64,000 nucleotides of DNA from an uncultured Christensenella sp. (GCA_964383635.1 CAYLIG010000003.1:32097-96096); one strand, 5' to 3'; positions 26,243 through 42,823 are shown, counted from the first letter of the stretch. Translations and numbers: made by a program. The notes: generated from the letters alone by a model not told the origin.

Positions 26243-26282
26243 CCATTACGACCGATCGCTCCGATTTCCCCCTCGCTCCATT

Positions 26283-26307
26283 CCACCCGCAAAGCGGGTG
26301 GTTTTTT
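26283..26307 (+). terminator. Intrinsic terminator
   Basis: CCACCCGC-aaa-GCGGGTGG followed by TTTTTT. Confidence 0.85.
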
Positions 26308-26369
26308 ATGCCGTCCGCATTTTTTCGACTAAGACGAAATCAATCTGTCCGGGATTGCCGCCCCTTGCA

Positions 26370-29300
26370 TTACGATACGTCGCAGGGCTGCGAGAATGAG
26401 GATGTGTTGTTCAGCATATCCGTCGCCAGCAGTACAATCTGTTTGCCGGTAAGCGATTCGCCGCTTGTAAACGTAAAGCTGCCTTCCGCATCCGCGTCCG
26501 CAAATCCCAGCGAAACGATGTTCGTTTTTTCATATACATAGATCTCAACGCGCCCGAACGCGCAGGCGGTGCCGGATATGCTCTTATCCGCCGCGGTATT
26601 CACCGCCGGAGCGGCCAGATTCCCGTTGCCGCCCTCCAGAAGCAGGATTAAATCCCACGGCTTGTCTCCGGAAAACGCGTTCGCCCGGATGATATTGCCC
26701 GATCCATAGTCCACGCGCACGGCGTTGCTGTTGTTTTTGCCAAACGTGTTGTTTTGAACAAAGCAGTCCGACGCGCCGTCCTCCAGATAGATCATCAGAC
26801 TGCCGGGATTGATCACCGTATTCCCGGCGATATAACAGGCTTTTATCCCGCGGTTGGTGATCCGCATGGAGATCGACCCGCCGACAACAAGGTTCCCCTC
26901 CGCCGCCGTATAGCCGCCGATCGTACCGTGCCGCTGCCCGGTGTTTACGTCGATTCCCATCCCGTTCGGCAGCGGATTGCCGTTGACGTCCACGCCGATG
27001 CGGTTGCCGAGGATGAAATTGTCCGAGCAGCCGTAACCGCTGAGGCCCGTGCCGCCGTTTTCATTGCCGCTGATGAGATTGCCCTCGCCCTCCGCCGTTC
27101 CGCCGATGCGGTGGTGGCTGCAGGCCCAGACGCCTCCGCCGGAGCGGTTGCCGACCGCTTTCGTGCCCGTAATGTCCGTGCCGATGTAATTGCCGATCAC
27201 GGCGTTTTGATAGCTGGTCGTGTCGCTGAATACAACGCCGCTCTGCGCGCCGCTGATGATATTGCGCTCCTCAAGCGTCGCACCTCCGACAATTGTATTT
27301 TTCGCGGTGCATTCCAGTACAAGATTGTTGTAAGTATCGTATTTTATTATTTTTGTGCCCGTGACATCCAGTCCTATGATGTTGCCGATGATCCGCGTGT
27401 GATCGCCCCACGTATCCATATTGATGAAATCGTTCCCGCTTGCGATATTGCGCTCGTCCGGGTTCGTGCTCCCTACGGTGATATAGAATCCCCAGTCGGT
27501 AACGAAAATGCCGTCGTAGTTGGGATAGGGCTTTGTGCCGGAAACATCCGTGCCGGCGAGATTGCCCATAACGCTCGTATACCAGCCGCCGGTGACGATC
27601 CCGCACCGGCCGTTTCCGCTGGTCAGGTTGCCCTGCCCAAGCGGGCCTGCGCCGATTGCGCGGCTCCCACCGAGCTGGTTCCAGTTTCCCTCCGCCTGAA
27701 TGCCGTTGAGCGGGAAGTTGACAATCTGCAGCCCCATGATTTTACATTTGCTTGCGGACAAGGTAAGCCCGTTTCCGTCCGAAAGCCGGCTTCCGTCCAG
27801 AATGACGCCCGCGTTGCTTGCGTCCAGCGTCAGGTAGTTCGCCTCTATGCGCAAAAGCTCGGTCTCCAGCAGAATCGTCGCAGGTTTTTTCGGGGAAAAC
27901 ACCGTCGTGTCAAATGTAATCGTCGTGTTTGGCATTAGATGCTCCAGCGCGTACCGAAGCGTTCCCTCCCCGCTGTCCGCCGTGCTCGTAACGACGTATT
28001 CGTGCTGCTCACTCGGAACCGGAATCTCGTTCGGCGGCGAATAGGGCGTGGTTTGCCTGTCCTCGCCGGTCAGCAGCGTCAGCGCATATCCCCCGGTTGC
28101 CGCGGCGGTTGCTTTTGTCGGTTCCGTGCTGTCAGCGCGTTGATAAATCGTCATGCCCGCGATGCTGTCGGCTACGATGAGCCGGTCTCCTTCGAGACAG
28201 CAGGCGTTCGCGTCGCCGAGCGTATGGATCGTTTCAATCAATACCGGGTTGTTGATATCGGAGAAATCAAGCACCTGAATCCCGTTTCCCAGCGTGGAGA
28301 TATATGCGGTGGTTCCGTCCAGCGTGACCCCCATGGGACTGCCGGACATCGCAAATTCACCGGTCTTGTGCGGATTGGAAGGATCGCTGACGTCTACGAT
28401 CCATAGTCCCGGCTCGCCGGCGCAGAGCACCGTCGTGTCGTTGAGAAAAGCAACCGCCTCGCCGCTGGAGTTGTTGTCCATCGCCGCGAGCTGTTTGAAA
28501 TGGAACGGATCGGAAATATCGAATATCTGCAGTCTCGGGCCGGTGATAAACAGATTTCCGCGCACGGCGGCGCTGTTCGGCTCAATATCCAGATAGATCA
28601 AATCCGCAAGCGCGGGGTTTGAAGAATCGCTCAAATCAATCGACACAATTCCGTGTTCGCCGGATATAAACGCCATCCCGTTTTCCAGCGCAAACGAACG
28701 AAACGCGGTATTGAATACATCCGCGTCGTTCGGTATCGCGCCAAGTTTTTTTGGCGCGAGCGGGTTTTCCAGATCAAAGATTACAAGCGGTTCCCTTGTG
28801 TCGATATGCGTGGACATATACGCTTTGTCGTCCGATACGAGTATGTTATTCACATAACCGCCGTCGGAGTTATACCAGAACGCCTCCTGCGGATTGCCGT
28901 AGTCGCTCAGGTCGATCACGTGCATGCCGGACAGCCCGCCCGCGACGTACGCGGTCGTCCCGGACACCGTCAGGCGGCGCGCGCCCGTCAGCGGCATCCA
29001 GCGGCTGATCAGCGCGGGCGCAGACTTGTCCGAATAATCGACCGTCACCAGGCCGAATTCCTCGTCCAGCAAAAACGCCGTGCTGCCGTTCACCGTGCCG
29101 GAGCCGACAAAGCCGTACAGCGTAAACGTCGACACAAGCGCAGGTTCATCCGCCGAAATGTCGTATAGCATCGCGCCGTCCGCGCCGTCGAGCACGAGCA
29201 GATCGTTTCCCACACAATCCAGCCCCATCGCCCAGCCTGTCGTTTCCAGATTGCGCACAAGCGCCGGCGCAAGCGGTTGAGCGATATCAAACACGCTGAC

Positions 29301-30107
29301 GCCGCCCCACGCGCCGGCAAGGTACAGACGCCCGTCGATCATCTCCGCGTCGTACTGGCATCCGTTGAGCTGGATCAGCCCCGCTTCGACGGGCTGCTTT
29401 GGATCGCTCAAGTCGATCGTAAACAGTCCGCTTCCGCCGCCTGCGGCGTATGCCGTATTCCCTGCCATCGCAACGTCGTATACATACGCAAGCGGATACG
29501 CCTCCGAAACAAGAACAGGGTTTTGTATATCCGAAACGTCAACGATCTGCACGCCCTGCGGGCCGTCCGCAAGGATAACGTACTGACCGAACGGTATCGC
29601 GTTTTCCGTATACCCCATGGTGTCGAGATATCCCGAAATGGTCGGCGCCGCCGGGTTTGAAACGTTGAGGATCACCAGTCCGCCCGTACCGCAGGATACA
29701 AACAGATGCCCCGTTCCGTCTCCGGAGATGCTTTCAACAAATTGGGGCAGCATCGGGCTCGTTCCGATCATTTGGATATTTTTCGGATCCGCCGCGTTCA
29801 GCGCCAGAACATGCAGCCCCGAACCCAGATATACAACATCGTCCTCCTGAAACAACGCCTTGGTGGTTCCGCCGATCTGACCTATCATCTGCCAGTTGTC
29901 GGAGCCGGGATACAGCCAGTCCGGCTCAACGGGCGTTTCCCCGCTGTCCGCCAGAACAGGCGCCGCCGTGGTATCGCTCGAACCTGACAGGACGGGCGAC
30001 TCCATCGGTTCGTCTTGCGTTGGCGCGGGGGATTCCGCTCCTGTATTCGGAGAGCATCCCGACAAGGCAAGCAATAACACGAGCGCAAATACGGCAATAC
30101 GCTTCAT
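26370..30107 (-). CDS. Large surface lipoprotein: LVIVD-repeat beta-propellers plus right-handed beta-helix
   Basis: Lipobox LSGC; repeated LVILNVSNP.AP / IVDVSD..NP / IDLSD...P units; VVTSTADSGEGTLRYA; repeated GN.IG.D..G beta-helix turns. Confidence 0.85.
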   Translation of the reverse strand: MKRIAVFALVLLLALSGCSPNTGAESPAPTQDEPMESPVLSGSSDTTAAPVLADSGETPVEPDWLYPGSDNWQMIGQIGGTTKALFQEDDVVYLGSGLHVLALNAADPKNIQMIGTSPMLPQFVESISGDGTGHLFVSCGTGGLVILNVSNPAAPTISGYLDTMGYTENAIPFGQYVILADGPQGVQIVDVSDIQNPVLVSEAYPLAYVYDVAMAGNTAYAAGGGSGLFTIDLSDPKQPVEAGLIQLNGCQYDAEMIDGRLYLAGAWGGVSVFDIAQPLAPALVRNLETTGWAMGLDCVGNDLLVLDGADGAMLYDISADEPALVSTFTLYGFVGSGTVNGSTAFLLDEEFGLVTVDYSDKSAPALISRWMPLTGARRLTVSGTTAYVAGGLSGMHVIDLSDYGNPQEAFWYNSDGGYVNNILVSDDKAYMSTHIDTREPLVIFDLENPLAPKKLGAIPNDADVFNTAFRSFALENGMAFISGEHGIVSIDLSDSSNPALADLIYLDIEPNSAAVRGNLFITGPRLQIFDISDPFHFKQLAAMDNNSSGEAVAFLNDTTVLCAGEPGLWIVDVSDPSNPHKTGEFAMSGSPMGVTLDGTTAYISTLGNGIQVLDFSDINNPVLIETIHTLGDANACCLEGDRLIVADSIAGMTIYQRADSTEPTKATAAATGGYALTLLTGEDRQTTPYSPPNEIPVPSEQHEYVVTSTADSGEGTLRYALEHLMPNTTITFDTTVFSPKKPATILLETELLRIEANYLTLDASNAGVILDGSRLSDGNGLTLSASKCKIMGLQIVNFPLNGIQAEGNWNQLGGSRAIGAGPLGQGNLTSGNGRCGIVTGGWYTSVMGNLAGTDVSGTKPYPNYDGIFVTDWGFYITVGSTNPDERNIASGNDFINMDTWGDHTRIIGNIIGLDVTGTKIIKYDTYNNLVLECTAKNTIVGGATLEERNIISGAQSGVVFSDTTSYQNAVIGNYIGTDITGTKAVGNRSGGGVWACSHHRIGGTAEGEGNLISGNENGGTGLSGYGCSDNFILGNRIGVDVNGNPLPNGMGIDVNTGQRHGTIGGYTAAEGNLVVGGSISMRITNRGIKACYIAGNTVINPGSLMIYLEDGASDCFVQNNTFGKNNSNAVRVDYGSGNIIRANAFSGDKPWDLILLLEGGNGNLAAPAVNTAADKSISGTACAFGRVEIYVYEKTNIVSLGFADADAEGSFTFTSGESLTGKQIVLLATDMLNNTSSFSQPCDVS

Positions 30108-30217
30108 CGATCCATACCTCCGAACAACAGATATTCATTTGGAATTTCAGGTATTACTAGAATGGCACTTTTGCGAGTCGTCTATACAACAAGCTGTCAA
30201 ATCAGATTTCTCTTTTC

Positions 30218-30246
30218 ATTCTAGAAGCACAAAATTCCGAAGTCAA
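30218..30246 (-). promoter_or_regulatory. Probable sigma-A promoter of the LVIVD lipoprotein gene
   Basis: Minus strand TTGACT-N17-TAGAAT. Confidence 0.6.
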
Positions 30247-30274
30247 TTGCCTGAATCGAATTCTGTCTTTGGCG

Positions 30275-33200
30275 TCATTTTATGCCCGCCTGCAATAGAA
30301 TTTCAATCAGCGCAACGAGTAAAAAACCCAGCTCCCCAAGTATGGTTTGCTTTACGGCTTTGAAGTATGCGCCTCGAAGATCCAAAACAGAAACGTAGAC
30401 GGCGCCGAAATATTTGCGGTAAAAATACACCAATTCCCATATCGCCAGTAAAAGCGCTTGCAGAAACACCAGTATCAGCACGAACCCATGCGTGAAGGTA
30501 AACGCCGCCGCCGTTGCCAAAAAAGCCAGCGGCATCGAAACGAATGAATGCGCCATAAGAATGCCCGGGCGCATCCAAAGCAACAGCTCCCCCCTGTCGA
30601 TGCTGTCCGCCACCGTGCTGAACACCGCCGCGGCAAGCGGCAGCAGGCTGAGCAGCACGAATACGATTCCCCCGCCCGTCTTTGCGGCGATTGCAGCGAC
30701 AAACAGCGGAATCACGCACAGCAGGAAAAACAGCGCCGTAGGCATGAGAAACCAAACCATCTGCCAGAAGGAAAGGGCGTCCTTGTGCACCTTGGGCAGG
30801 CCTGCCTGCCTGGCCGCAGGCGTTTCTATGGATTGCTGTTTTTCGGCGTCCGGCCTGTCTTTGCTCAAATCGATCGGAGGCGCGTTGTCCTGAAGCACCC
30901 CTCTTTCTGCGCAGACCAGAAAATCGCTTCCGATCGTTCCGGCGCATACTATGCCGTTTTGAACATGAATTGCCGTAACCCTGGCGTCCGTATCAAAAAA
31001 GTAGACCGCCGGGCCGCCGCTGTCCGGGAATACGGCGATTCCCTGTTGCGTGCCTGCGTAGATGGTCCCTTTCTCGGCGGCAACGGCATACACAGGGCCT
31101 CCGCAGCGACAGGTTGCCGTCTGCTGCCAGGTGTTTAAATCCCAAACGGCGACCGTCCCGTCCAGAGACGCGCTGTAGAGCCTGTCCTCATTTCTGTACA
31201 GGCAGGAAATGGCCTCTTTATGCAGCGCAATCGTCCTGCCCTTCGGATTTGACGGATCGAACAAATCGACACTGCCGGAATATTTTTTCGCAAGTATCGG
31301 CGTATCGTTAAAAACAACCATCGAGCATATATCTTCCGGCGCTTTGAACTGCGCAATGCCCGTCGCGTCCGTCCGGTTCAACGCGCCGCCTTTCTCCGCA
31401 AACCATAATTGATCACCCGTGGCGACCATGGCGGTTACGGCGTAATCCGGCAATGTCTGAAGCCCCATGTAGACACGATCGTCTTTTCTGATGTACGACC
31501 GCTGCTGTGAAAGCGGCTCCATTGCTTCAACGATGTAATTGCTTGTTCCGAGATACAGGCGTTTGTCGTCCTTCGTCATAGACGTATAGGTGCGTATGCC
31601 GCAGGGGATGTCCGTTTCGATTCCGCCCTCCGGCTTGAGGCAAAAGACGCGCAGCGCATTCGGATCCAACAGGGCGCAGTAGCCGTCCCCCGCGGCCGCG
31701 CCGACCGCCGGGCCTTGAAAATAATCCGCGTTCAAAGTCGCGTTATCCACCGAATACATTCGAATTGCGCCGTCTGCGCAGCCCGCAAATAGTTGATCCG
31801 CTTTCCCGCACAGGCAGCGTGCCTGCGGGCAGGCGAAATACTGATCCGGCTGCCATGTGTCGTTCTCTTTGAGCCGCATGACGAAAACAGACGCCGGCGA
31901 AGCCATTGCAAAGCCGTTGCCAATCCCGGTCAGTCCTGTCAGATACGGACCCCTGTCAATGATTTGGTACACATCGGCAAGCTCGTCGCGAATCTCGATG
32001 TTTTCATAATCAAAAGAAGTCTGTTTCCCTGTTTTCAGGTTCCAAAACAGTATGCGCGGGTAAAACAGGCTGGCGGCGACCCAGTCCCCGGCTATTGCGA
32101 CACCGCCCACATATCCAAGCCGCGTTGGCTTTCGGGTATATCGAAAAAGGCCTCTCTTTCGGCGCGCCGTCAGATGTCCGCCCTTGCCGCCGTAGGAAAT
32201 ATACCCCTCCGAAGCGTCCATCCCATAGATTGGGCTGCCAAATCCGCGCACCCATGCAACCGGGCGCAGATCCGTTTTGTCGAAGCGGCGCACCGTTCCG
32301 TCCGCGGAGGAAGAGATCAGGTCTTTCCCGCGCAGCGCCAGTCCGTTAACCGCTTTTCGATGCGCCTTCCTTTCCGACACGCGAATCCGTGCCTCCGGAA
32401 TCCATATGATCAGACGTCCGGTATTTGTTCCAAGATATAGCCGCGTATCGTCGGACGTCATGCGGGAAACGCCGGGTTCGGAAAACAGATCCGTACATAC
32501 GCCGCCGTCGATATCCCATAGCCGGATGGTTCCGTCCGTATATGCCGCGGCAATCTTCTGGCCGTGCGGGCAGATTGCGCTTACCGAAGTATTTGCGGCG
32601 TGAAAAACCGTTGCTGTTTTCCATGGGCTGGCCAGACAGCATTTCAGGGGTTGGAGCCAATAGCGCGATGTTTCGCGCTCCGCCTGTATGAGCAGGGCTT
32701 GCAGCGCCGGTTCCCGCGCCTCCATCAGGCGGCCAAGCAGCTGCTCCGGCAGGCAGTTCGGATCTCTGCTCAGCGCGGCGGCCGACAGCCACAGCGCGCG
32801 CTGCAGGAGGATACAGGCGCGATTGTCCGGGTCGGCAAAGTAAAAATCATCCGCCGTATCTTCCGGCCCCGAGGCGATCAGCCTCTCCCGAAGCCAGCGA
32901 AAGTCCGTCAGCAGCTTTGCCGTATCCTCTCCACCCTCATGCATATGATAAACCAGCTCGGAAAAGCCTCTTTCGCGTGAAACGCCGCGGCTTTCGGAAG
33001 TTTCCGAAAAACGAAAACTTCCGTCCCCCGACGGATCCGCCGCGCCGCGAAAAACGGCCGAAAGCGCGGAATTCCCCTGCTTCATACGTTCCGCGTATCG
33101 CGCCCGCGCGGTTCTGCGGAGGCTGTCGAACCGGAAGTCCACCCGGTTGCTGCGGCGGGAAAGAAACGGCCGCAGTCTGCGGATTAAAACGTTCAGCGCG

Positions 33201-34810
33201 TCGGTTTCCCCGTCCGCAGACGTGCCCAGACATCTTCGCGCCTCAACCAGTTCTCGAATGGACAGCCCGGCCCTCGAAGCGGCGATCATCGTAAAGAAGT
33301 CCTTTGCAACCGATGTTTCGGCTTCCAGATGTGTCATGACGCATGAAAACGCCGACTCCGGCGTATCGCCGAACGCGGCGATTTGCTGTCCAAGCGCTTC
33401 GAAAGAACCGGATACGCGAAGCTCGCTGAGCAAAATGTTCAGAAACAGCGGATTGCCGGACGCGGGCGCGGCGCAGATCTGCCGGATCTCCGGTTCGTCC
33501 AGCTTTTTAAAATATCGGGAGAGGTAGCCGTTCACAAGCTGCCGCTTTGACAGATCGCCGGACAATCCGTCGAGAACGAGTTCCTGGCAGCCGCCGTTTT
33601 TCAGCCGCGCCAGTCGCTGTTCGTCAATGGCGGAGCGGCGTATGCCGATGATCATATTAAGCCCGGGAGGAATGGCCGACGGAATCCGGTCGAGCAGCTT
33701 CAATCCGCCCGGAATCTGGTCGAGTCCATCCAGAAGGATGATATGTTTCTCCAGCGCCGCAAACAGTTCCGGCAGCGCATCCAATATCGCGTCGTCGCCG
33801 GACGGCAGCAGCATGCCAGCCTCAAAAAACAGCTTTTCCAGCAAGCCTTTGATGCTGTCGGATCTGTCGGATGCGCCGCAAAACCGCGCGATGACAGACG
33901 CGCCATGCTGAATCAACTCGCGGGCAACGCCGCAAAGCAGCGTCGTTTTTCCTACGCCCGCCTCGCCGGTCAGCAGCAGCGGGCCGCCGGGTTGGTTTCT
34001 CTTTGCAAATTGAACCAGCAACCGCTCCTGCTCCGCTCTTGGCAGGTATTCCTTCATGCCGGACCAGAGAAACGTATCCTGCTGTTCCGCTTCTGTTTCG
34101 CGGTATTCGCCGGGCGTCCGATCCGGAAACTCCACCGCGATCATTTCCTGCAGCGCCGCCAGCAGCGTTTCGCGCAGCGGTTTCCCGTTTGCTTGGAAAT
34201 CCGTCAGTCCATGATCGCCATATCGGCAGGAATAGTTGATCGTCGGGCTTAGGATGTCGCTTACCGTTCGGCGCAGGTTCAATAGCGCGTCGTATTCCGC
34301 CGGGTCGTCGTCGTAATAAACGGCGCGCGCGTCTTGCGGCAGGTTTTTGACGCAACCTTCATCCCGCAGGCAAAACAGGGAACGCTGTGCAATTTCGGGT
34401 ATTGTCTCAAGGCCGTTTACAATGCGGTGCAGCGGGGCAAGCAGGGCGTGTTCGATTTCCATCTCCGTGATGGACATCCGTCCGACCCGGCGGCTCAGCG
34501 CGGGGTATTCTTCATAGGTTGCCGCCGCTATCTCCTCTTTTGTCGGCACCCAGCCGCGTCTTTGCCCAATGAGACAGAGGAAGAACGGCCGGCAGTCGTC
34601 TATATTATGCAGGCAGGCGGCAACCACGCTTCGCGCCCTGGCGTCTTCCGCCGTTACACCCCAGCGAAGATCGATATCCGTCAGGCGAAGCTGTCGCGCG
34701 GCGCACCAGTCCGACAGCTCGGGAAATATCTCTTTCACCAGATAATCGCGTTCCGCGTGCATGTCCCGAAACGTGCTGCTGATAAAAACCGTTACATCTC
34801 GCCATGCCAT
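30275..34810 (-). CDS. DUF4062-NACHT(STAND)-WD40 protein with C-terminal multi-pass membrane segment (NLR-like)
   Basis: N-terminal VFISSTFRDMHAERDYL...IDLRWGV...SITEMEI (DUF4062); Walker A GEAGVGKT; Walker B ILLDGLD; WD repeats (SSSADGTVRRF, SASLDGTVAVWD); about 160-aa hydrophobic tail. Confidence 0.85.
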   Translation of the reverse strand: MAWRDVTVFISSTFRDMHAERDYLVKEIFPELSDWCAARQLRLTDIDLRWGVTAEDARARSVVAACLHNIDDCRPFFLCLIGQRRGWVPTKEEIAAATYEEYPALSRRVGRMSITEMEIEHALLAPLHRIVNGLETIPEIAQRSLFCLRDEGCVKNLPQDARAVYYDDDPAEYDALLNLRRTVSDILSPTINYSCRYGDHGLTDFQANGKPLRETLLAALQEMIAVEFPDRTPGEYRETEAEQQDTFLWSGMKEYLPRAEQERLLVQFAKRNQPGGPLLLTGEAGVGKTTLLCGVARELIQHGASVIARFCGASDRSDSIKGLLEKLFFEAGMLLPSGDDAILDALPELFAALEKHIILLDGLDQIPGGLKLLDRIPSAIPPGLNMIIGIRRSAIDEQRLARLKNGGCQELVLDGLSGDLSKRQLVNGYLSRYFKKLDEPEIRQICAAPASGNPLFLNILLSELRVSGSFEALGQQIAAFGDTPESAFSCVMTHLEAETSVAKDFFTMIAASRAGLSIRELVEARRCLGTSADGETDALNVLIRRLRPFLSRRSNRVDFRFDSLRRTARARYAERMKQGNSALSAVFRGAADPSGDGSFRFSETSESRGVSRERGFSELVYHMHEGGEDTAKLLTDFRWLRERLIASGPEDTADDFYFADPDNRACILLQRALWLSAAALSRDPNCLPEQLLGRLMEAREPALQALLIQAERETSRYWLQPLKCCLASPWKTATVFHAANTSVSAICPHGQKIAAAYTDGTIRLWDIDGGVCTDLFSEPGVSRMTSDDTRLYLGTNTGRLIIWIPEARIRVSERKAHRKAVNGLALRGKDLISSSADGTVRRFDKTDLRPVAWVRGFGSPIYGMDASEGYISYGGKGGHLTARRKRGLFRYTRKPTRLGYVGGVAIAGDWVAASLFYPRILFWNLKTGKQTSFDYENIEIRDELADVYQIIDRGPYLTGLTGIGNGFAMASPASVFVMRLKENDTWQPDQYFACPQARCLCGKADQLFAGCADGAIRMYSVDNATLNADYFQGPAVGAAAGDGYCALLDPNALRVFCLKPEGGIETDIPCGIRTYTSMTKDDKRLYLGTSNYIVEAMEPLSQQRSYIRKDDRVYMGLQTLPDYAVTAMVATGDQLWFAEKGGALNRTDATGIAQFKAPEDICSMVVFNDTPILAKKYSGSVDLFDPSNPKGRTIALHKEAISCLYRNEDRLYSASLDGTVAVWDLNTWQQTATCRCGGPVYAVAAEKGTIYAGTQQGIAVFPDSGGPAVYFFDTDARVTAIHVQNGIVCAGTIGSDFLVCAERGVLQDNAPPIDLSKDRPDAEKQQSIETPAARQAGLPKVHKDALSFWQMVWFLMPTALFFLLCVIPLFVAAIAAKTGGGIVFVLLSLLPLAAAVFSTVADSIDRGELLLWMRPGILMAHSFVSMPLAFLATAAAFTFTHGFVLILVFLQALLLAIWELVYFYRKYFGAVYVSVLDLRGAYFKAVKQTILGELGFLLVALIEILLQAGIK

Positions 34811-34850
34811 ATCATCGCGCTCCCGTTTGTTTTTATACATATATTTTGAC

Positions 34851-34956
34851 TTTTATGCTTTTCTTATGAACTTTGCCCTTTTATAATTCAGGCGAATATA
34901 AGCGACACTATTCTGATTTTTTATGCTTTTTGTATCAACTTTGCTTTTTAATAATT
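34851..34956. repeat. Two 38-bp direct repeats upstream of the NACHT gene
   Basis: 34851-34888 and 34919-34956, 32/38 identical, period 68. Confidence 0.75.
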
Positions 34957-35211
34957 AGAACGATGCTATAGCAATAACAACACTATAGTTATATCAGAAA
35001 CGGCGCCCGATTTACAGCGTAAACATGTTAATTTAAAATTTCTCCGCAAAAACAATCCTCCCTCGTTGAAAATGGATGCCGCGGGGTTCGCTTTGCCGCA
35101 TCGCGCTTGCAGGCTATGGTATAATTTCCATCCAACCACATGAAAAAACACGAATATGAGTTAAAATTGTAGCAATTTCGAGCAGCATCACAATCACAAA
35201 CGCATCTGCGC

Positions 35212-35261
35212 TTGACATAGATAGAATGCCGATATATGATTGTATAGAATTCCGATATATG
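35212..35261 (+). promoter_or_regulatory. padR promoter with tandem 18-bp repeats
   Basis: TTGACA-N17-TATGAT; ATAGAAT(G/T)CCGATATATG at 35221-35238 and 35244-35261, overlapping the -10 and running into the RBS. Confidence 0.65.
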
Positions 35262-35273
35262 GAGGGCATCTCG

Positions 35274-35621
35274 ATGCGTATCGACAAGACGCTGGTCACG
35301 CGCAGCACATCCATGCTGCTGATGAAACTTCTGGAACAGGAGGACATGTACGGCTATCAGATGATTGCCGAGCTTGCCAGCCGCTCCGATAAAACTTTTT
35401 CCCTCAAGGCCGGCACGCTGTATCCCCTGCTGCACGATCTCGAGCGTCAGGGCATGATCTCCGCATATGAAAAAGCCGCGGAGACGGGACGCATGAGAAA
35501 GTATTACACCCTGACGAAGAGCGGGCGTCGGTCACTGGCTGAAAAGGAGGCGGAATGGGCCTGTTTTTCATCGGCGGTAAATCAGGTTCTGACAGGGGGT
35601 GCCAGCCTTGCCACAGTCTGA
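35274..35621 (+). CDS. PadR-family transcriptional regulator
   Basis: DMYGYQMIAEL...GTLYPLLH.LE..G.I...RKYY.LT..GR..L; starts after GGAGG. Confidence 0.93.
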   Translation: MRIDKTLVTRSTSMLLMKLLEQEDMYGYQMIAELASRSDKTFSLKAGTLYPLLHDLERQGMISAYEKAAETGRMRKYYTLTKSGRRSLAEKEAEWACFSSAVNQVLTGGASLATV

Positions 35622-36972
35622 ACGGGCGTGTGCCTTTCTGGAAGCCGTTTGCGAGCAGGTTCGCTGGCGGCAAGCGCACGAAACGATTCGAAGCGATCTT
35701 TCCGCACATATCGAGGATCAGGAGGACGCCCTGCTTCAAAGCGGGTTCTCTCAAAGCGAGGCGCAGAGCCGTGCGGTCGCGGAGATGGGCGATCCCGTGG
35801 AAATAGGGTTGCAGCTGGATGCAAGCTATCGTCCCGGCATCGCGACTGCGGTTGTGCTCCCCCTTGGCTTGCTTGCGCTGCTGGGCGTGCTGCTGCGGCT
35901 GTTTGTCTATGCGCTCACGCCCGGTCAGTGGGGGTTGTTCGGCATTGCGTTGGTCGTCGGAAGCGCCGGATTTTACGCTCTGCTGCGGTTGAATCTGTAC
36001 CGGGCGCTGCGATACGCATGGTGGCTCGCGGGCGCTTTCATCCTGCTGGCATTGATTCTGCCTGCCATTGCGGAGCGAATGATCGCCTATCACAATCAAT
36101 CCGGCTACTGGCGTGTCTACTACATTGCAAAATATCTTTGGCTGCTGCTGCCGCCGGTATACGCGTTTCTCGTCTATCGCATGCGCGGCACGGGGTTTGG
36201 CGGCGTGCTGCTTTGCTGCCTGCTGTTTGCAATCCCCGTCGGGCTGTATATGCGTCTTGTGTTTTCATCCTATCTTTGGGAGGCAATCGGCGCGCTGGGC
36301 TGTTTCGCCGTTCTGATTACGGCGATCCTGCGGGGCTCTTTCGGCTGCAATCGCTGGGTTGCGTTTTCCGTCGTCGCGCTGGGCGCCGCAATTTGCGTCT
36401 TTCTGTTCGGCATCGCGGAGCCTTATCGCGCAAGCCGCATTCTGTCCGTTTTGAATCCGCAGCGCGATCCGAACGGCGACGGGTTTCTCGTTTTACGGGT
36501 GCGTGAGATCGTCTCGAGCTGCGTCTGGTTTGGTCGCGGTGGAACGCTTCCGCAGCAGGCCGCGCAGGCCATGGAGTTCTTCCAGAGCAATACGGAGAGC
36601 CGGAATTATGTTTTGACCATGCTCATGTATCGATATGGCATCGCATGGATGGTTCTGCCGGTCGGCGCCGTCGCGGTGTTTGTCGTTTTCAGCGTCCGGC
36701 GCATCCGGCGGGTTGGCAGCACGCTTGGAAAAATGCTCGCGACGGGAATCGTTACGGTGCTTGTTTCGCAGGCCGTGCTATCCATTATCGCTTGTCTGGG
36801 ATACCCGCTCTGGGACAACGCGTTCTTTCCGTTTCTCTCCTTCGACAGCGCGGCTTTTTGCGTCGACCTGCTGCTTGCGGGCGGGCTGGCGTCTCTGCTG
36901 CAATCGGACACCCTGTTTCACGACAGGGCGTACAACAGAAGAAAGCTGCGAATCCGGTTCGATCTGGTTTAA
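35608..36972 (+). CDS. FtsW/RodA/SpoVE (SEDS)-like membrane protein with N-terminal HAAS-type helical domain
   Basis: N-terminal EAVCEQVRW...DLSAHIEDQ....G.S..EA..RAV.EMGDP.EIG..L; C-terminal PY...RI...LNP..DP.G.GF and FPFLSF. TTG start spaced from GGGGG. Confidence 0.8.
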   Translation: MPQSERACAFLEAVCEQVRWRQAHETIRSDLSAHIEDQEDALLQSGFSQSEAQSRAVAEMGDPVEIGLQLDASYRPGIATAVVLPLGLLALLGVLLRLFVYALTPGQWGLFGIALVVGSAGFYALLRLNLYRALRYAWWLAGAFILLALILPAIAERMIAYHNQSGYWRVYYIAKYLWLLLPPVYAFLVYRMRGTGFGGVLLCCLLFAIPVGLYMRLVFSSYLWEAIGALGCFAVLITAILRGSFGCNRWVAFSVVALGAAICVFLFGIAEPYRASRILSVLNPQRDPNGDGFLVLRVREIVSSCVWFGRGGTLPQQAAQAMEFFQSNTESRNYVLTMLMYRYGIAWMVLPVGAVAVFVVFSVRRIRRVGSTLGKMLATGIVTVLVSQAVLSIIACLGYPLWDNAFFPFLSFDSAAFCVDLLLAGGLASLLQSDTLFHDRAYNRRKLRIRFDLV

Positions 36973-37009: not shown

Positions 37010-38248
37010 TTACGCAAACTCCATATGCGCCTGACGAAAAAACGTCTCATCCTCTCTCGTAAAGTGCAGACCATAGTCGCATATACGCGTCATCACCCGG
37101 TTGATCAGTTGTTCATCGGCAAAGTTTTCACAGATGTTGAGATTGAATTTGCCATTGCAATCAACCATATTCAAGTTGCAGTACCCGACATCCGGCCACA
37201 TATAAAACCAGCAATCGCGCACTTTTTTCAGCACATCCGGGTGAAACGGAAGCTGTCCAAGATAGGATAGCTGCGCGTTTGTGTCGTGTTCCTTCAGCCA
37301 CCACACGACGGCTTTCATGATGGCCTTACTCACATTCTTTGCGGGCATGCGATATAACGCGTCGGTGTCGTCGATTAACGCGGTGCATCTTGAAACAATG
37401 TAGTCCGGTTGGCGGTAAGAATCCAGCAGCCGCTTATAGACGCCGCAAAGGGAGCGAAGATCCAGATCGTCGTACGACGGCAAATAGGAAACAGGCTCAA
37501 AAATAGCCGCATTGTGCATCGTACCAAATCCCATCGGTATGCGGGTGTCAATGTTGATGCTGAATCGAACATTCGCCTTTTTCAGCTGCTCGGGGAGGCA
37601 TTCGTGCAGAGCGCGCGAAAACAGCGGCGCGATCAGCGCTGTCGGTGTCGCGCCAAGGCTGCGAGCGATGGACACGAGTTCGCCGCTTTCGATTGCGTAC
37701 CGATGCGACAGGCAGCCCGCCCCCCTGCCGTTTGCTTTCACACGCCGGTTTGCATAGCCCAATGGCTGGTTTGGAATGGCAGGCGCATGTGCCGTTTTAT
37801 CATAGTATCGCGCAAAAGGCGGCTCAGTCCCGGAATGATCCGTGTTTGCCGGAACGTCGAAGTAATCTGCCAGCAGCGCGGATAGAAAAGCCATCGCGCC
37901 GCGCCCGTCGGTAACGGCATGACACCATTCGAAGCTGATTTTGTTTTCATCATGGCAGAGCCGCCAGGGGAATCCGTTTGTATCGTGCCCGAAGCTGTCC
38001 GGCCGGTTTTCGATGGAGCAATGATGCAGAATAATCGGCTCGTCGTTCTCTTCCAGATAATACTCGCGGTCGAATACGATCCTTGTTTTCAGCAGCGAGT
38101 AATTGCAAAGGGTGTGTTCTGCCGCGCGGCGCAATCGATCGGGATCGACAGAATCGGAAAGGTAAACTTGAATGAGCGGCACGCTCTCCGCGCGTGTGCC
38201 GATTGCCATCATATGATAGTAATCCATGTTATCCAGCCGATATCTCAT
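37010..38248 (-). CDS. CoA-dependent acyltransferase (condensation / alcohol acetyltransferase-like)
   Basis: HAVTDG (HxxxDG) motif, IDTR, SYLG. Confidence 0.7.
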   Translation of the reverse strand: MRYRLDNMDYYHMMAIGTRAESVPLIQVYLSDSVDPDRLRRAAEHTLCNYSLLKTRIVFDREYYLEENDEPIILHHCSIENRPDSFGHDTNGFPWRLCHDENKISFEWCHAVTDGRGAMAFLSALLADYFDVPANTDHSGTEPPFARYYDKTAHAPAIPNQPLGYANRRVKANGRGAGCLSHRYAIESGELVSIARSLGATPTALIAPLFSRALHECLPEQLKKANVRFSINIDTRIPMGFGTMHNAAIFEPVSYLPSYDDLDLRSLCGVYKRLLDSYRQPDYIVSRCTALIDDTDALYRMPAKNVSKAIMKAVVWWLKEHDTNAQLSYLGQLPFHPDVLKKVRDCWFYMWPDVGYCNLNMVDCNGKFNLNICENFADEQLINRVMTRICDYGLHFTREDETFFRQAHMEFA

Positions 38249-41437: not shown

Positions 41438-42823
41438 TTATGCCGCTTTATGCGGAATATCATTCTCGACCGCATAGTTCCAAACATAGCTTCCCTCCGT
41501 GCAGATGATGGTCAGAGCGTCACAGTATGCAAACGCAGAATTGCCGATGCTGGTCACGCTGTCAGGGATCGTGATGCTTTCCAATGCAGAACACATCATA
41601 AACGCTCCCTGGCCTATGCTTGTTACGCTGTTTGGAATAGTGATTGATTTTAAAGCAGATCCCTGAAACATCCCGTCGCTGATGCTTGTAACACCATCGA
41701 GTATCGTGATGCTCTCCAGCGCACTGCACAGTGAAAAAGCTCCATCGCCAATGCTCGTTACACTTCCCGGTATTGTAATAGTCTCCAAGGCAGAACAGTT
41801 GCAAAATGCTTCTCTTCCTATACTGGTTACACTGGCGGGAATTGAAACACTTTGAAGGTTACGGCATTGATAGAACGCTCCACCGAGTATGTTTGTAAAG
41901 CCCTCAGGGATCGTAACACTCTTTACGTAATTGTTGCTACTAAAATCGAATAAAATCTTGTCCGCAGGAACGGTAATCTCCGCTTCCTTGCCTATATATA
42001 CAAATTGTGCGCCTTTCCCGATTTCAATCCAGTCACCTTGCATCTGTGCTTCCAGCCAGGGCGTATAACCAAAAGCGCCACCGCCGATGCTCGTTACGCT
42101 GTCGGGTATCGAAACATCACTCAAAGCTCCGCAGCTGTTAAAAGCCAACGCACCTATTGTTTTTACGCCATCAGGAATGACAATACTTGCTAGCGAATTG
42201 CACATGAAAAATGCTCGATCGCCTACGCTCGTCACACTTGCAGGTATTTCGAAGCTCGAAAATGCACAGTTGAAAAAGGTTAAATCGCCGATGGTTGTTA
42301 CGCCTTCAGGAATCGAAATGTTTGTCAATCTTTGGCACAGGCTAAAAGCTCCATCTCCGATGACTGTTACTGTGCTCGGAATTGTAACGCTGATGAGGGA
42401 GCTGCACCAATAAAATGCATCATTGCCGATACATGTAACTCCCTCCGGTATCGTAACACTTGTCAAATAGGCAAGTTGGCTAAACGCCTCTGCCCCAATT
42501 TCCGTTATGGCTAAACCGTCCAGTTCCGCAGGAATGATTATGTCAAGCTTGCTTAAATCATTTCCGTAATAATAATGCGTGACGGTAGCCGTACCGTCTG
42601 AATATGCTGCATACTCGAAATTATCGATCACGTTTTTTTCCGAAACCAGCGTCCGCTCCGGAATTGGAGTCGTCGTCGGTTCCGGCGTAACCGCCTGCTC
42701 CTGCGTCGCGGTGATTGAAGCATTCGCGGCCGTGCTTTCCTGCGGCGATGTCGCAGAATTCGCGCAGGCAGCAAGGAAAAGCAGCAGAACGCAGCTAAGC
42801 GACAAGGATACTACACGTTTCAT
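41438..42823 (-). CDS. BspA-type leucine-rich-repeat (LRR_5) surface lipoprotein
   Basis: Lipobox LAAC; about 12 copies of L.S(I/V)TIP..VTSIG..AF..C. Confidence 0.93.
   Translation of the reverse strand: MKRVVSLSLSCVLLLFLAACANSATSPQESTAANASITATQEQAVTPEPTTTPIPERTLVSEKNVIDNFEYAAYSDGTATVTHYYYGNDLSKLDIIIPAELDGLAITEIGAEAFSQLAYLTSVTIPEGVTCIGNDAFYWCSSLISVTIPSTVTVIGDGAFSLCQRLTNISIPEGVTTIGDLTFFNCAFSSFEIPASVTSVGDRAFFMCNSLASIVIPDGVKTIGALAFNSCGALSDVSIPDSVTSIGGGAFGYTPWLEAQMQGDWIEIGKGAQFVYIGKEAEITVPADKILFDFSSNNYVKSVTIPEGFTNILGGAFYQCRNLQSVSIPASVTSIGREAFCNCSALETITIPGSVTSIGDGAFSLCSALESITILDGVTSISDGMFQGSALKSITIPNSVTSIGQGAFMMCSALESITIPDSVTSIGNSAFAYCDALTIICTEGSYVWNYAVENDIPHKAA

Follow-up and report, generated by a model that had tools for sequence, protein, structure and literature searches.

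A large gene predicted to encode an NLR-like protein lies on the minus strand (30275..34810) of a 64,000-nucleotide stretch of DNA from an uncultured Christensenella sp. (GCA_964383635.1 CAYLIG010000003.1:32097-96096), which is referred to below as the window. In the predicted product an N-terminal DUF4062 domain, since renamed NIR, is followed by a NACHT-type NTPase, a WD40 sensor region and a hydrophobic C-terminal tail. The gene is contained in one uninterrupted open reading frame of 1521 aa (30275..34840, minus strand). Its natural start is most likely the ATG at 34810, giving about 1511 aa plus a stop, rather than the upstream ATG at 34840, because GGGAG lies 9 nt 5' of it, a database protein of 1511 aa and 97% identity (P0002) begins with MAWRD at this ATG, and the sole ATG of an 81% identical copy (L001) occupies the equivalent position. 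Residues are numbered on the 1521-aa frame, and 10 is to be subtracted to obtain positions in the likely protein. The 5' leader and promoter-like region (34811..34957, minus strand) contains TTGATA-17-CAGAAT at 34938-34910 and travels with the gene, homology to a 97% copy (L084) beginning at about 34957. A short 3' untranslated stretch (30239..30274, minus strand) is still common to the 97% copy on L083, with homology ending at about 30239-30245.

Domains of the soluble part

Based on comparison with Pfam models, DUF4062 (PF13271) was identified at residues 18-112 with 44.7 bits (cut-off 24.7; 47.7 bits when the N-terminal fragment was searched), and NACHT at residues 288-431 with a marginal 27.2 bits (cut-off 26.7), the same stretch also being matched by AAA_16, AAA_22 and NPHP3_N. 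WD40 and propeller models, those of the TEP1 propellers among them, matched from residue 744 to about 1260. These models, together with a match to PDB chain 11gz_A described below, bear out the original prediction of a DUF4062-NACHT-WD40 order with an N-terminal effector and a likeness to TEP1/NWD proteins; the start at 34810 which it had assumed is likewise upheld by the evidence given above.

The NIR domain, predicted to be a TIR-like NAD+-cleaving (NADase) domain, occupies 34136..34807 (minus strand; residue 12 to about 235), its end being estimated from the length of the TEP1 construct and from the model. The only significant solved relative of residues 1-260 was 11gz_A, the TIR-like domain of human TEP1, which matched residues 12-133 (E 7.7e-21). 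In TEP1, E1008 is catalytic and R908, R954 and R976 are active-site arginines (Osinski et al., 10.64898/2026.05.01.722283; here and below, statements from the cited papers refer to those parts of their text that were available). Numbering position i of the chain as TEP1 893+i places all three of these residues on arginines of 11gz_A, and with the offset fixed in this way E1008 corresponds to E128, R908 to R25 and R976 to R94. E128, the predicted catalytic glutamate, is encoded at 34457..34459 (minus strand) within the motif S-I-T-E-M-E and is also the equivalent of KpSwz E97 and PsAvs2 E108. The motif S-x-T-E-M-E is kept in every tailed member of the same clade that was checked (P0002 and P0004-P0010). 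In the high-confidence model, strands and helices alternate over model residues 1 to about 230. The Foldseek matches listed for the 730-aa model included no TIR chain, in a search made with the whole model and dominated by its STAND part. By its residues the NIR head is enzyme-competent, that is, a predicted NADase.

DUF4062 proteins have only just been shown to form a class of NADases common to bacterial defence and human TEP1, in three 2026 preprints. Le Mouellic et al. (10.64898/2026.09.04.749371) renamed the domain NIR and described NAD+ depletion and Glu-dependent phage defence for an Avs2 protein and two new systems. NAD+ depletion and Glu dependence were likewise described for Swarozyc and TEP1 by Osinski et al. 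(10.64898/2026.05.01.722283), who also found that the NADase activity of TEP1 increases with concentration. Together these two sources make DUF4062 a NADase effector required for phage defence in PsAvs2, Vulcan, Vesta and Swarozyc. Evangelion was described by Ibarra-Chavez et al. (10.64898/2026.06.25.731849), who mention bacterial TEP1-like proteins with NACHT and WD40. The NAD cleavage suggested for DUF4062 in the original prediction thus holds for other proteins with this domain. Among prokaryotic proteins, the NIR-NACHT-WD40 proteins of bacteria resemble TEP1 and NWD1/2 most closely.

The NACHT/STAND nucleotide-binding domain lies at 33548..34036 (minus strand; residues 269-431). NACHT motifs are given as GxxxxGK[ST] for Walker A and, in the wording of Kibby et al. 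(10.1101/2022.07.19.500537), hhhhD[GAS]hDE for Walker B. Walker A (GEAGVGKT) was identified at residue 292 (33944-33967) and a Walker B-like sequence (IILLDGLDQ, with D371 as its Asp) at residue 367 (33716-33742). The helical and winged-helix domains of the STAND module, in an Apaf-1-like arrangement, follow at 32621..33547 (minus strand; residues 432-740). When the first 730 residues were aligned with 29 relatives on named genome contigs, E128, the G, G and K of Walker A and the Asp of Walker B were invariant in all 30 sequences. An AlphaFold model of residues 11-740 built from this alignment reached a predicted local distance difference test score (pLDDT) of 87.9 and a predicted template modelling score of 0.85. 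The top Foldseek match of the model was ADP-bound Apaf-1 (1z6t_B, E 3.7e-12) over about 560 columns, with TM-scores of 0.47 (query) and 0.56 (target); further matches of the NTPase-helical part were full-length Apaf-1, Avs3, a TPR-STAND protein (6mfv), NLRP3, NLRC4 and plant NLRs. As modelled, the NTPase module has the nucleotide-binding, helical and winged-helix fold of STAND proteins.

The WD40 beta-propeller sensor region is encoded at 30881..32620 (minus strand; residues 741-1320), and its length of about 580 aa would fit two propellers. It is separated from the tail by a polar, basic juxtamembrane linker (30770..30880, minus strand; residues 1321-1357).

The predicted C-terminal membrane tail

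The tail of 164 aa, which had been placed at 30278-30770 with roughly five hydrophobic helices, was recovered to the base and with about that number of helices. In a Kyte-Doolittle plot (19-residue window, threshold 1.6) the only hydrophobic stretches lay within residues 1356-1521, with five peaks of 1.65 to 2.64, and nothing in the first 1355 residues exceeded the threshold. AlphaFold, run on the final 241 residues as a single sequence, placed helices at 1358-1385, 1391-1415, 1423-1448, 1452-1478 and 1489-1519; owing to the model's pLDDT of 54, secondary structure alone was taken from it and no fold search was made. The predicted transmembrane (TM) helices are helix 1 (30683..30769, residues 1358-1386), helix 2 (30605..30670, residues 1391-1412), helix 3 (30500..30568, residues 1425-1447), which has the weakest hydropathy peak (1.65), and helix 4 (30419..30487, residues 1452-1474), all on the minus strand. 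Helix 5 (30281..30346, minus strand; residues 1499-1520) has two Glu and could be either a fifth TM helix or an interfacial amphipathic helix.

The soluble part is taken to be cytoplasmic because it has no signal sequence and requires ATP. With the corresponding N-in orientation, 10 Lys and Arg residues of the tail fall inside and 2 outside; the inside loops measure 16 and 28 aa and the predicted outside loops 5, 7 and 3 residues. Judged by this charge distribution, the C-terminal bundle is one of four to five TM helices with the whole soluble part in the cytoplasm. Since the outside loops are too short, no sensing ectodomain is predicted, and any sensing of the envelope or of phage entry would have to be intramembrane or at the cytoplasmic face.

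The original prediction would have failed had the tail been an artefact of read-through or of a frameshift, and a mis-assembled fusion of two genes was considered as well. Such an origin is suggested by the want of a family for the tail, by its single database relative and by the untailed end of one close relative (P0003), and is given next to no chance here: the frame continues through the tail in P0002 and in L083, a metagenome contig (98% identical at the protein level in the final 268 residues), and contigs of three further studies (runs X4, X5 and X10) span the tail or the WD40-tail junction. No indel is listed between 30150 and 34810 in independent contigs, those listed all falling in intergenic DNA (26255-26319 or 30131-30149; two more are unlisted). 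Between the window and L083 the tail differs by 8 synonymous and 3 non-synonymous changes, a ratio of non-synonymous to synonymous rates (pN/pS) of 0.13, against 0.12 for the adjoining end of the WD40 region; the counts are small and their direction, purifying selection on the tail, is clear. Equivalent tails are present in seven further clade members (about 30% identity) and in two named metagenome-assembled genomes (MAGs).

Homology searches gave few relatives of the tail itself. A phmmer search with the 193-residue tail against 1.84 billion representatives matched a single protein, P0002, and none that was free-standing or in another architecture. With Pfam at E up to 10 only a zf-LITAF-like match was obtained (E 0.6), with NCBIfam none; in the ESM Atlas the window's type of tail (A) had no usable match and a second type (B) scored at most 0.84 to unnamed clusters. 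Pfam found nothing meaningful in the type-B tails of two genome loci, L002 and L003.

The distribution of tails was examined in a set of 121 proteins, consisting of the query and the best 120 of 984 matches. At least three C-terminal hydrophobic segments were found in 12 of them (P0001, P0002, P0004-P0010, P0064, P0094 and P0113). In a tree of the NIR-NACHT part, computed with FastTree only, P0001 to P0011 formed one clade with local support of 100, the long branch of P0003 being flagged. Nine of these 11 members have a multi-TM tail, at the same place; P0011 has only 1119 aa and is on a 4.2-kb contig. P0064, P0094 and P0113 belong to a distant clade and end in an unrelated tail of at least three TM helices (type C), which suggests that a membrane tail behind the sensor arose independently in a second DUF4062-NACHT-WD40 lineage. 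P0004-P0010 have tails that resemble one another (type B). Those of P0004, P0007 and P0010 follow the plan of type A, being predicted to be N-in with five helices, inside loops of 15-23 and 29-34 aa (16 and 28 in type A), and 14-18 Lys and Arg inside versus 3-5 outside; they depart from it only in a longer first outside loop of 25-34 residues. A hidden Markov model built from the seven type-B sequences matched neither type A nor type C with E 10 as the limit, and hhalign probabilities between the types were 1.2%, 0.1% and 0.5%, the juxtamembrane linker alone being faintly alike. In the family at large, 2 of the 66 genome loci with a complete 3' end encode a tail (L002 from a Blautia MAG and L003 from a Coriobacteriaceae MAG), and both are of the window's clade. 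A multi-TM tail beyond the sensor is therefore a recurrent solution, rare in the family at large, and in view of the lack of a family model for such tails these genes may be misread as fusion errors.

TM modules commonly serve as effectors elsewhere among defence systems. The tail could accordingly be an active module: it might sense events within the membrane, for example membrane potential, the insertion of holins or proteins of phage DNA entry, or it might act as a further effector, disturbing the membrane once NACHT oligomerisation brings many tails together. This has a small chance of being right. The predicted helices include ionisable residues (His in helix 3, Glu in helix 4 and two Glu in helix 5), a few positions (W1422, P1367, P1437 and Y1482) align across types A and B, and TM regions of bacterial NACHT proteins have been proposed to sense intramembrane or periplasmic signals (Kibby et al., 10.1101/2022.07.19.500537). 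A second effector would, however, be unneeded beside the intact NADase effector present in all tailed clade members checked; the differing sequences of the tail types argue against a specific binding site or channel, and no relative of the tail stands alone or in another architecture. We read the tail as mainly a tether, because its position and plan (number of helices, orientation and lengths of the inside loops) are kept while its sequence is not, because there is no ectodomain, and because none of the tailed relatives checked has lost the effector. Such a tether might keep the sensor near entering phage components, lower the threshold of oligomerisation through confinement to two dimensions or act as a restraint.

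Proposed function and mobility of the gene

The product is best read as a single-gene, single-polypeptide, NLR-like abortive-infection NADase system held at the inner face of the cytoplasmic membrane, a reading in which our confidence is only a little above even. By analogy with Apaf-1, the Avs proteins, Swarozyc and TEP1, the protein at rest would be a closed monomer held by its tail at the inner membrane face. The WD40 propellers would bind a phage protein, or a host protein altered by the phage, near the membrane; the ligand on the propellers would release the NTPase, and nucleotide exchange in the NACHT domain would drive oligomerisation, which confinement to two dimensions would favour. 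The clustered NIR domains would then become active NADases and deplete NAD+, and the infected cell would stop growing before phage release.

In its core the protein belongs to a known kind: it would work like an NIR-Avs protein and looks like TEP1/NWD proteins and Apaf-1. PsAvs2 of Pseudomonas chlororaphis (10.64898/2026.09.04.749371) likewise joins an N-terminal NIR NADase with a catalytic Glu, a STAND NTPase and a C-terminal repeat sensor in one polypeptide, but has a TPR sensor and an Avs2-type NTPase in place of the WD40 and NACHT/TEP1-like domains found here. With PADLOC the protein could not be assigned to Avs1-5, the sole Avs match being to Avs2 (13.9 bits) over residues 288-315, the P-loop. 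Human TEP1, NWD1 and NWD2 (10.64898/2026.05.01.722283) have the same order of DUF4062, NACHT, helical and WD40 parts, and TEP1 belongs to NACHT clade 16 (Kibby et al., 10.1101/2022.07.19.500537). These eukaryotic proteins differ in being soluble or vault-bound, none being reported with a TM tail in the available text; TEP1 adds TROVE and vWA domains, and NWD1, NWD2 and NPHP3 had no NADase activity in vitro (10.64898/2026.05.01.722283). Apaf-1 (PDB 1z6t, 3sfz) is the best structural match of the modelled NTPase-helical part and also uses WD40 as both sensor and autoinhibitor, with activation by oligomerisation. It differs in having a CARD adaptor instead of an NIR enzyme head, in its NB-ARC rather than NACHT lineage, in being soluble and in sharing only about 15% sequence identity. 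Swarozyc, Evangelion, Vulcan and Vesta share the NIR/DUF4062 NADase effector and the logic of abortive infection, but as far as they are described in the available text they have no STAND NTPase, WD40 or TM region and sense through auxiliary or HEAT domains or a partner gene.

That a bacterial NACHT protein may be membrane-associated is not a new idea, given the work of Kibby et al. (10.1101/2022.07.19.500537): the C-termini that they list for bacterial NACHT proteins include TM regions, 'hybrids' in which the repeats are followed by a possible tethering domain, and combinations of these. In their TM-type proteins the TM region is the presumed sensor, whereas here a full WD40 sensor precedes the tail. 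No published NIR-NACHT-WD40 protein with a multi-TM tail was found, although figures and supplements of the preprints and Table S1 of Kibby et al. may list such architectures. The main texts of all three DUF4062 preprints, to which the count was confined, lack the word 'transmembrane', and term searches of Kaur et al. 2020 and of the 2026 Nature survey of STAND proteins gave no description of an NIR-NACHT-WD40 protein with several TM helices.

The distribution of the gene was investigated by comparison with other genomes and metagenomes. It is present as a single copy in its own genome (3.0 Mb, 45 contigs), was found in none of three same-genus genomes, and among 100 same-family genomes was matched in one, over the WD40 part only. 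The same-genus genomes are too diverged for an island to be delimited by synteny. Two contigs of one metagenome, L083 and L084 (97% nucleotide identity), match the window over 30239-34957 only and are unrelated on both flanks, the shared cassette comprising the gene plus about 147 bases on its 5' side and 36 on its 3' side. Directly upstream on L084 and co-oriented with the gene, outside the shared cassette, a 404-aa protein is encoded (L084:911-2125, plus strand) with a TIR_2 match (E 7.5e-10) and a weak match to ThsB. In L001 similarity is lost at the gene start, and glycosyltransferase genes lie upstream; in L002 MoxR, DUF58 and an unknown gene are packed against the start and MatE is downstream; the neighbours in L003 are a GT2 gene and unknowns. 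Neither direct nor inverted repeats of at least 9 nt flank the cassette ends, the window contains no tRNA and no Rfam family, and no relative was found on viral contigs. Each of five matching plasmid records covered less than 80% of the protein, at below 60% identity. On these comparisons the gene appears to behave as a self-contained, horizontally moving cassette. A contig of run X10 matches the lipoprotein side of the window up to 30247 and continues with 184 bases absent from the window; coming from the opposite side, homology to L083 stops at exactly this point, a weak hint, from a single contig, of a boundary formed by recombination or insertion. A simple empty site at 30247 was considered and ruled out, the loose end not being found elsewhere in the window.

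These surroundings bear on a second reading, in which the same protein at the same location is a STAND signalling protein or a regulated cell-death switch for an endogenous or envelope cue, its NIR domain being weakly active or an adaptor, a possibility also for NWD1, NWD2 and NPHP3. Its chance is a minor one, though not small. The gene has no defence genes around it in its own genome, genes for cell-envelope glycosyltransferases precede it in L001 and L003, its arrangement beside a surface lipoprotein gene recurs in contigs of two other studies, and full-length NWD1, NWD2 and NPHP3 are inactive on NAD+ in vitro (10.64898/2026.05.01.722283). On the other hand, the catalytic Glu and the equivalents of two active-site Arg are kept, the distribution is extremely patchy and the gene moves singly between contexts, a TIR protein is the neighbour in an alternative context, and NIR genes, taken as a class, lie near defence genes more often than expected, at 20.0% versus 3.9% (10.64898/2026.09.04.749371).

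Several observations weigh against an abortive-infection system held at the membrane. No experiment was found on any bacterial NIR-NACHT-WD40 protein, and the NIR systems that have been tested have other sensors. No PADLOC model covers the protein, its matches being of P-loop level and at most 24 bits. Of the 25 flanking proteins none had a specific PADLOC match (two had generic ABC-ATPase and glycosidase matches); the neighbours in the window are metabolic or regulatory and form no defence island, and a defence-type neighbour was present in one of five contexts (the window, L001, L002, L003 and L083/L084). Walker B reads DGLDQ (DGLNQ in relatives), so that the final acidic pair of the quoted D[GAS]hDE is not kept. 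As regards the membrane, insertion and topology of the tail are predicted from hydropathy, the positive-inside rule and a low-confidence model, and an equivalent topology was resolved in three of the seven sister tails, the other four having four helices at threshold or no Lys/Arg bias. The tail types A, B and C are not detectably homologous in sequence, and 'conserved' applies to their kind and place only. P0003 (1409 aa) ends just past the basic linker without a hydrophobic tail, which could reflect tail loss or a frameshift.

A bolder form of the proposal would make the protein the first integral-membrane prokaryotic NLR-type receptor to join a full repeat sensor to a functional tether, with NAD+ depletion triggered at phage entry and not by late protein synthesis; this form is judged improbable. 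If it were true, the WD40 sensor would sit at the site where phage genomes, and proteins of the ejection, pilot or holin kind, are first encountered, or activation would depend on the state of the membrane, and the fast-diverging, topologically fixed five-TM tail would be the evolvable part of the interface. More generally, a natural membrane-tethered version offers a handle on where such receptors meet their trigger, and on whether membrane confinement shifts the oligomerisation threshold of NLR proteins.

Neighbouring genes and occurrence

The gene downstream (26370..30107, minus strand) encodes a protein of 1245 aa with LVIVD repeats, a beta-propeller match and a lipoprotein signal. The giant surface lipoprotein gene noted in the original prediction is thus real, but the suggested link with the NLR-like gene is not supported, the 97% copy sharing 30239-34957 only and the neighbours in L002 and L003 being different. 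An operon of the two genes was considered and rejected, as the neighbours differ in other contexts and the lipoprotein gene has a promoter-like site of its own (30246-30218), with GGAGG before its ATG. The lipoprotein-NLR-PadR arrangement is nevertheless not peculiar to this assembly, being bridged by contigs of other studies over 29291-30781 (X4), 29058-30355 (X10) and 34523-35533 (X5). On sequence grounds a functional tie between the two genes is not supported.

On the L084 contig, the approximately 200 N-terminal residues of the TIR_2 protein are without an assignment. In the Blautia MAG (L002:3-3354, plus strand) a MoxR AAA_3 ATPase, a DUF58 protein and a 430-aa unknown protein are encoded by tightly packed or overlapping genes directly before the tailed homologue. 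The MoxR protein also matches the bpMoxR model of MoxR-vWA-beta-propeller ternary systems; the window lacks this trio, which may form an operon of the ternary type of Kaur et al. 2020 or be adjacent by chance.

The gene was detected in 20 runs of 11 studies, comprising metagenomes of anaerobic digesters, wastewater, bioreactors, sludge, biogas, groundwater and sediment; no RNA run with the gene was listed among the 23 runs.

Upstream of the NLR-like gene (35226-36972, plus strand), the gene for a PadR-family regulator overlaps the start of that for a 457-aa membrane protein with 'permease prefix domain 1' and a weakly FtsW/RodA-like C-terminal half. This pair is the sole part of the 20-kb surroundings in common with a same-genus genome (G061; 69% and 43% protein identity). 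At 37010-38248 (minus strand) a 412-aa protein without a Pfam, NCBIfam or PADLOC match is encoded. It adjoins an acyltransferase and two AMP-binding enzymes, which flank a BspA-type leucine-rich repeat protein (41438-42823).

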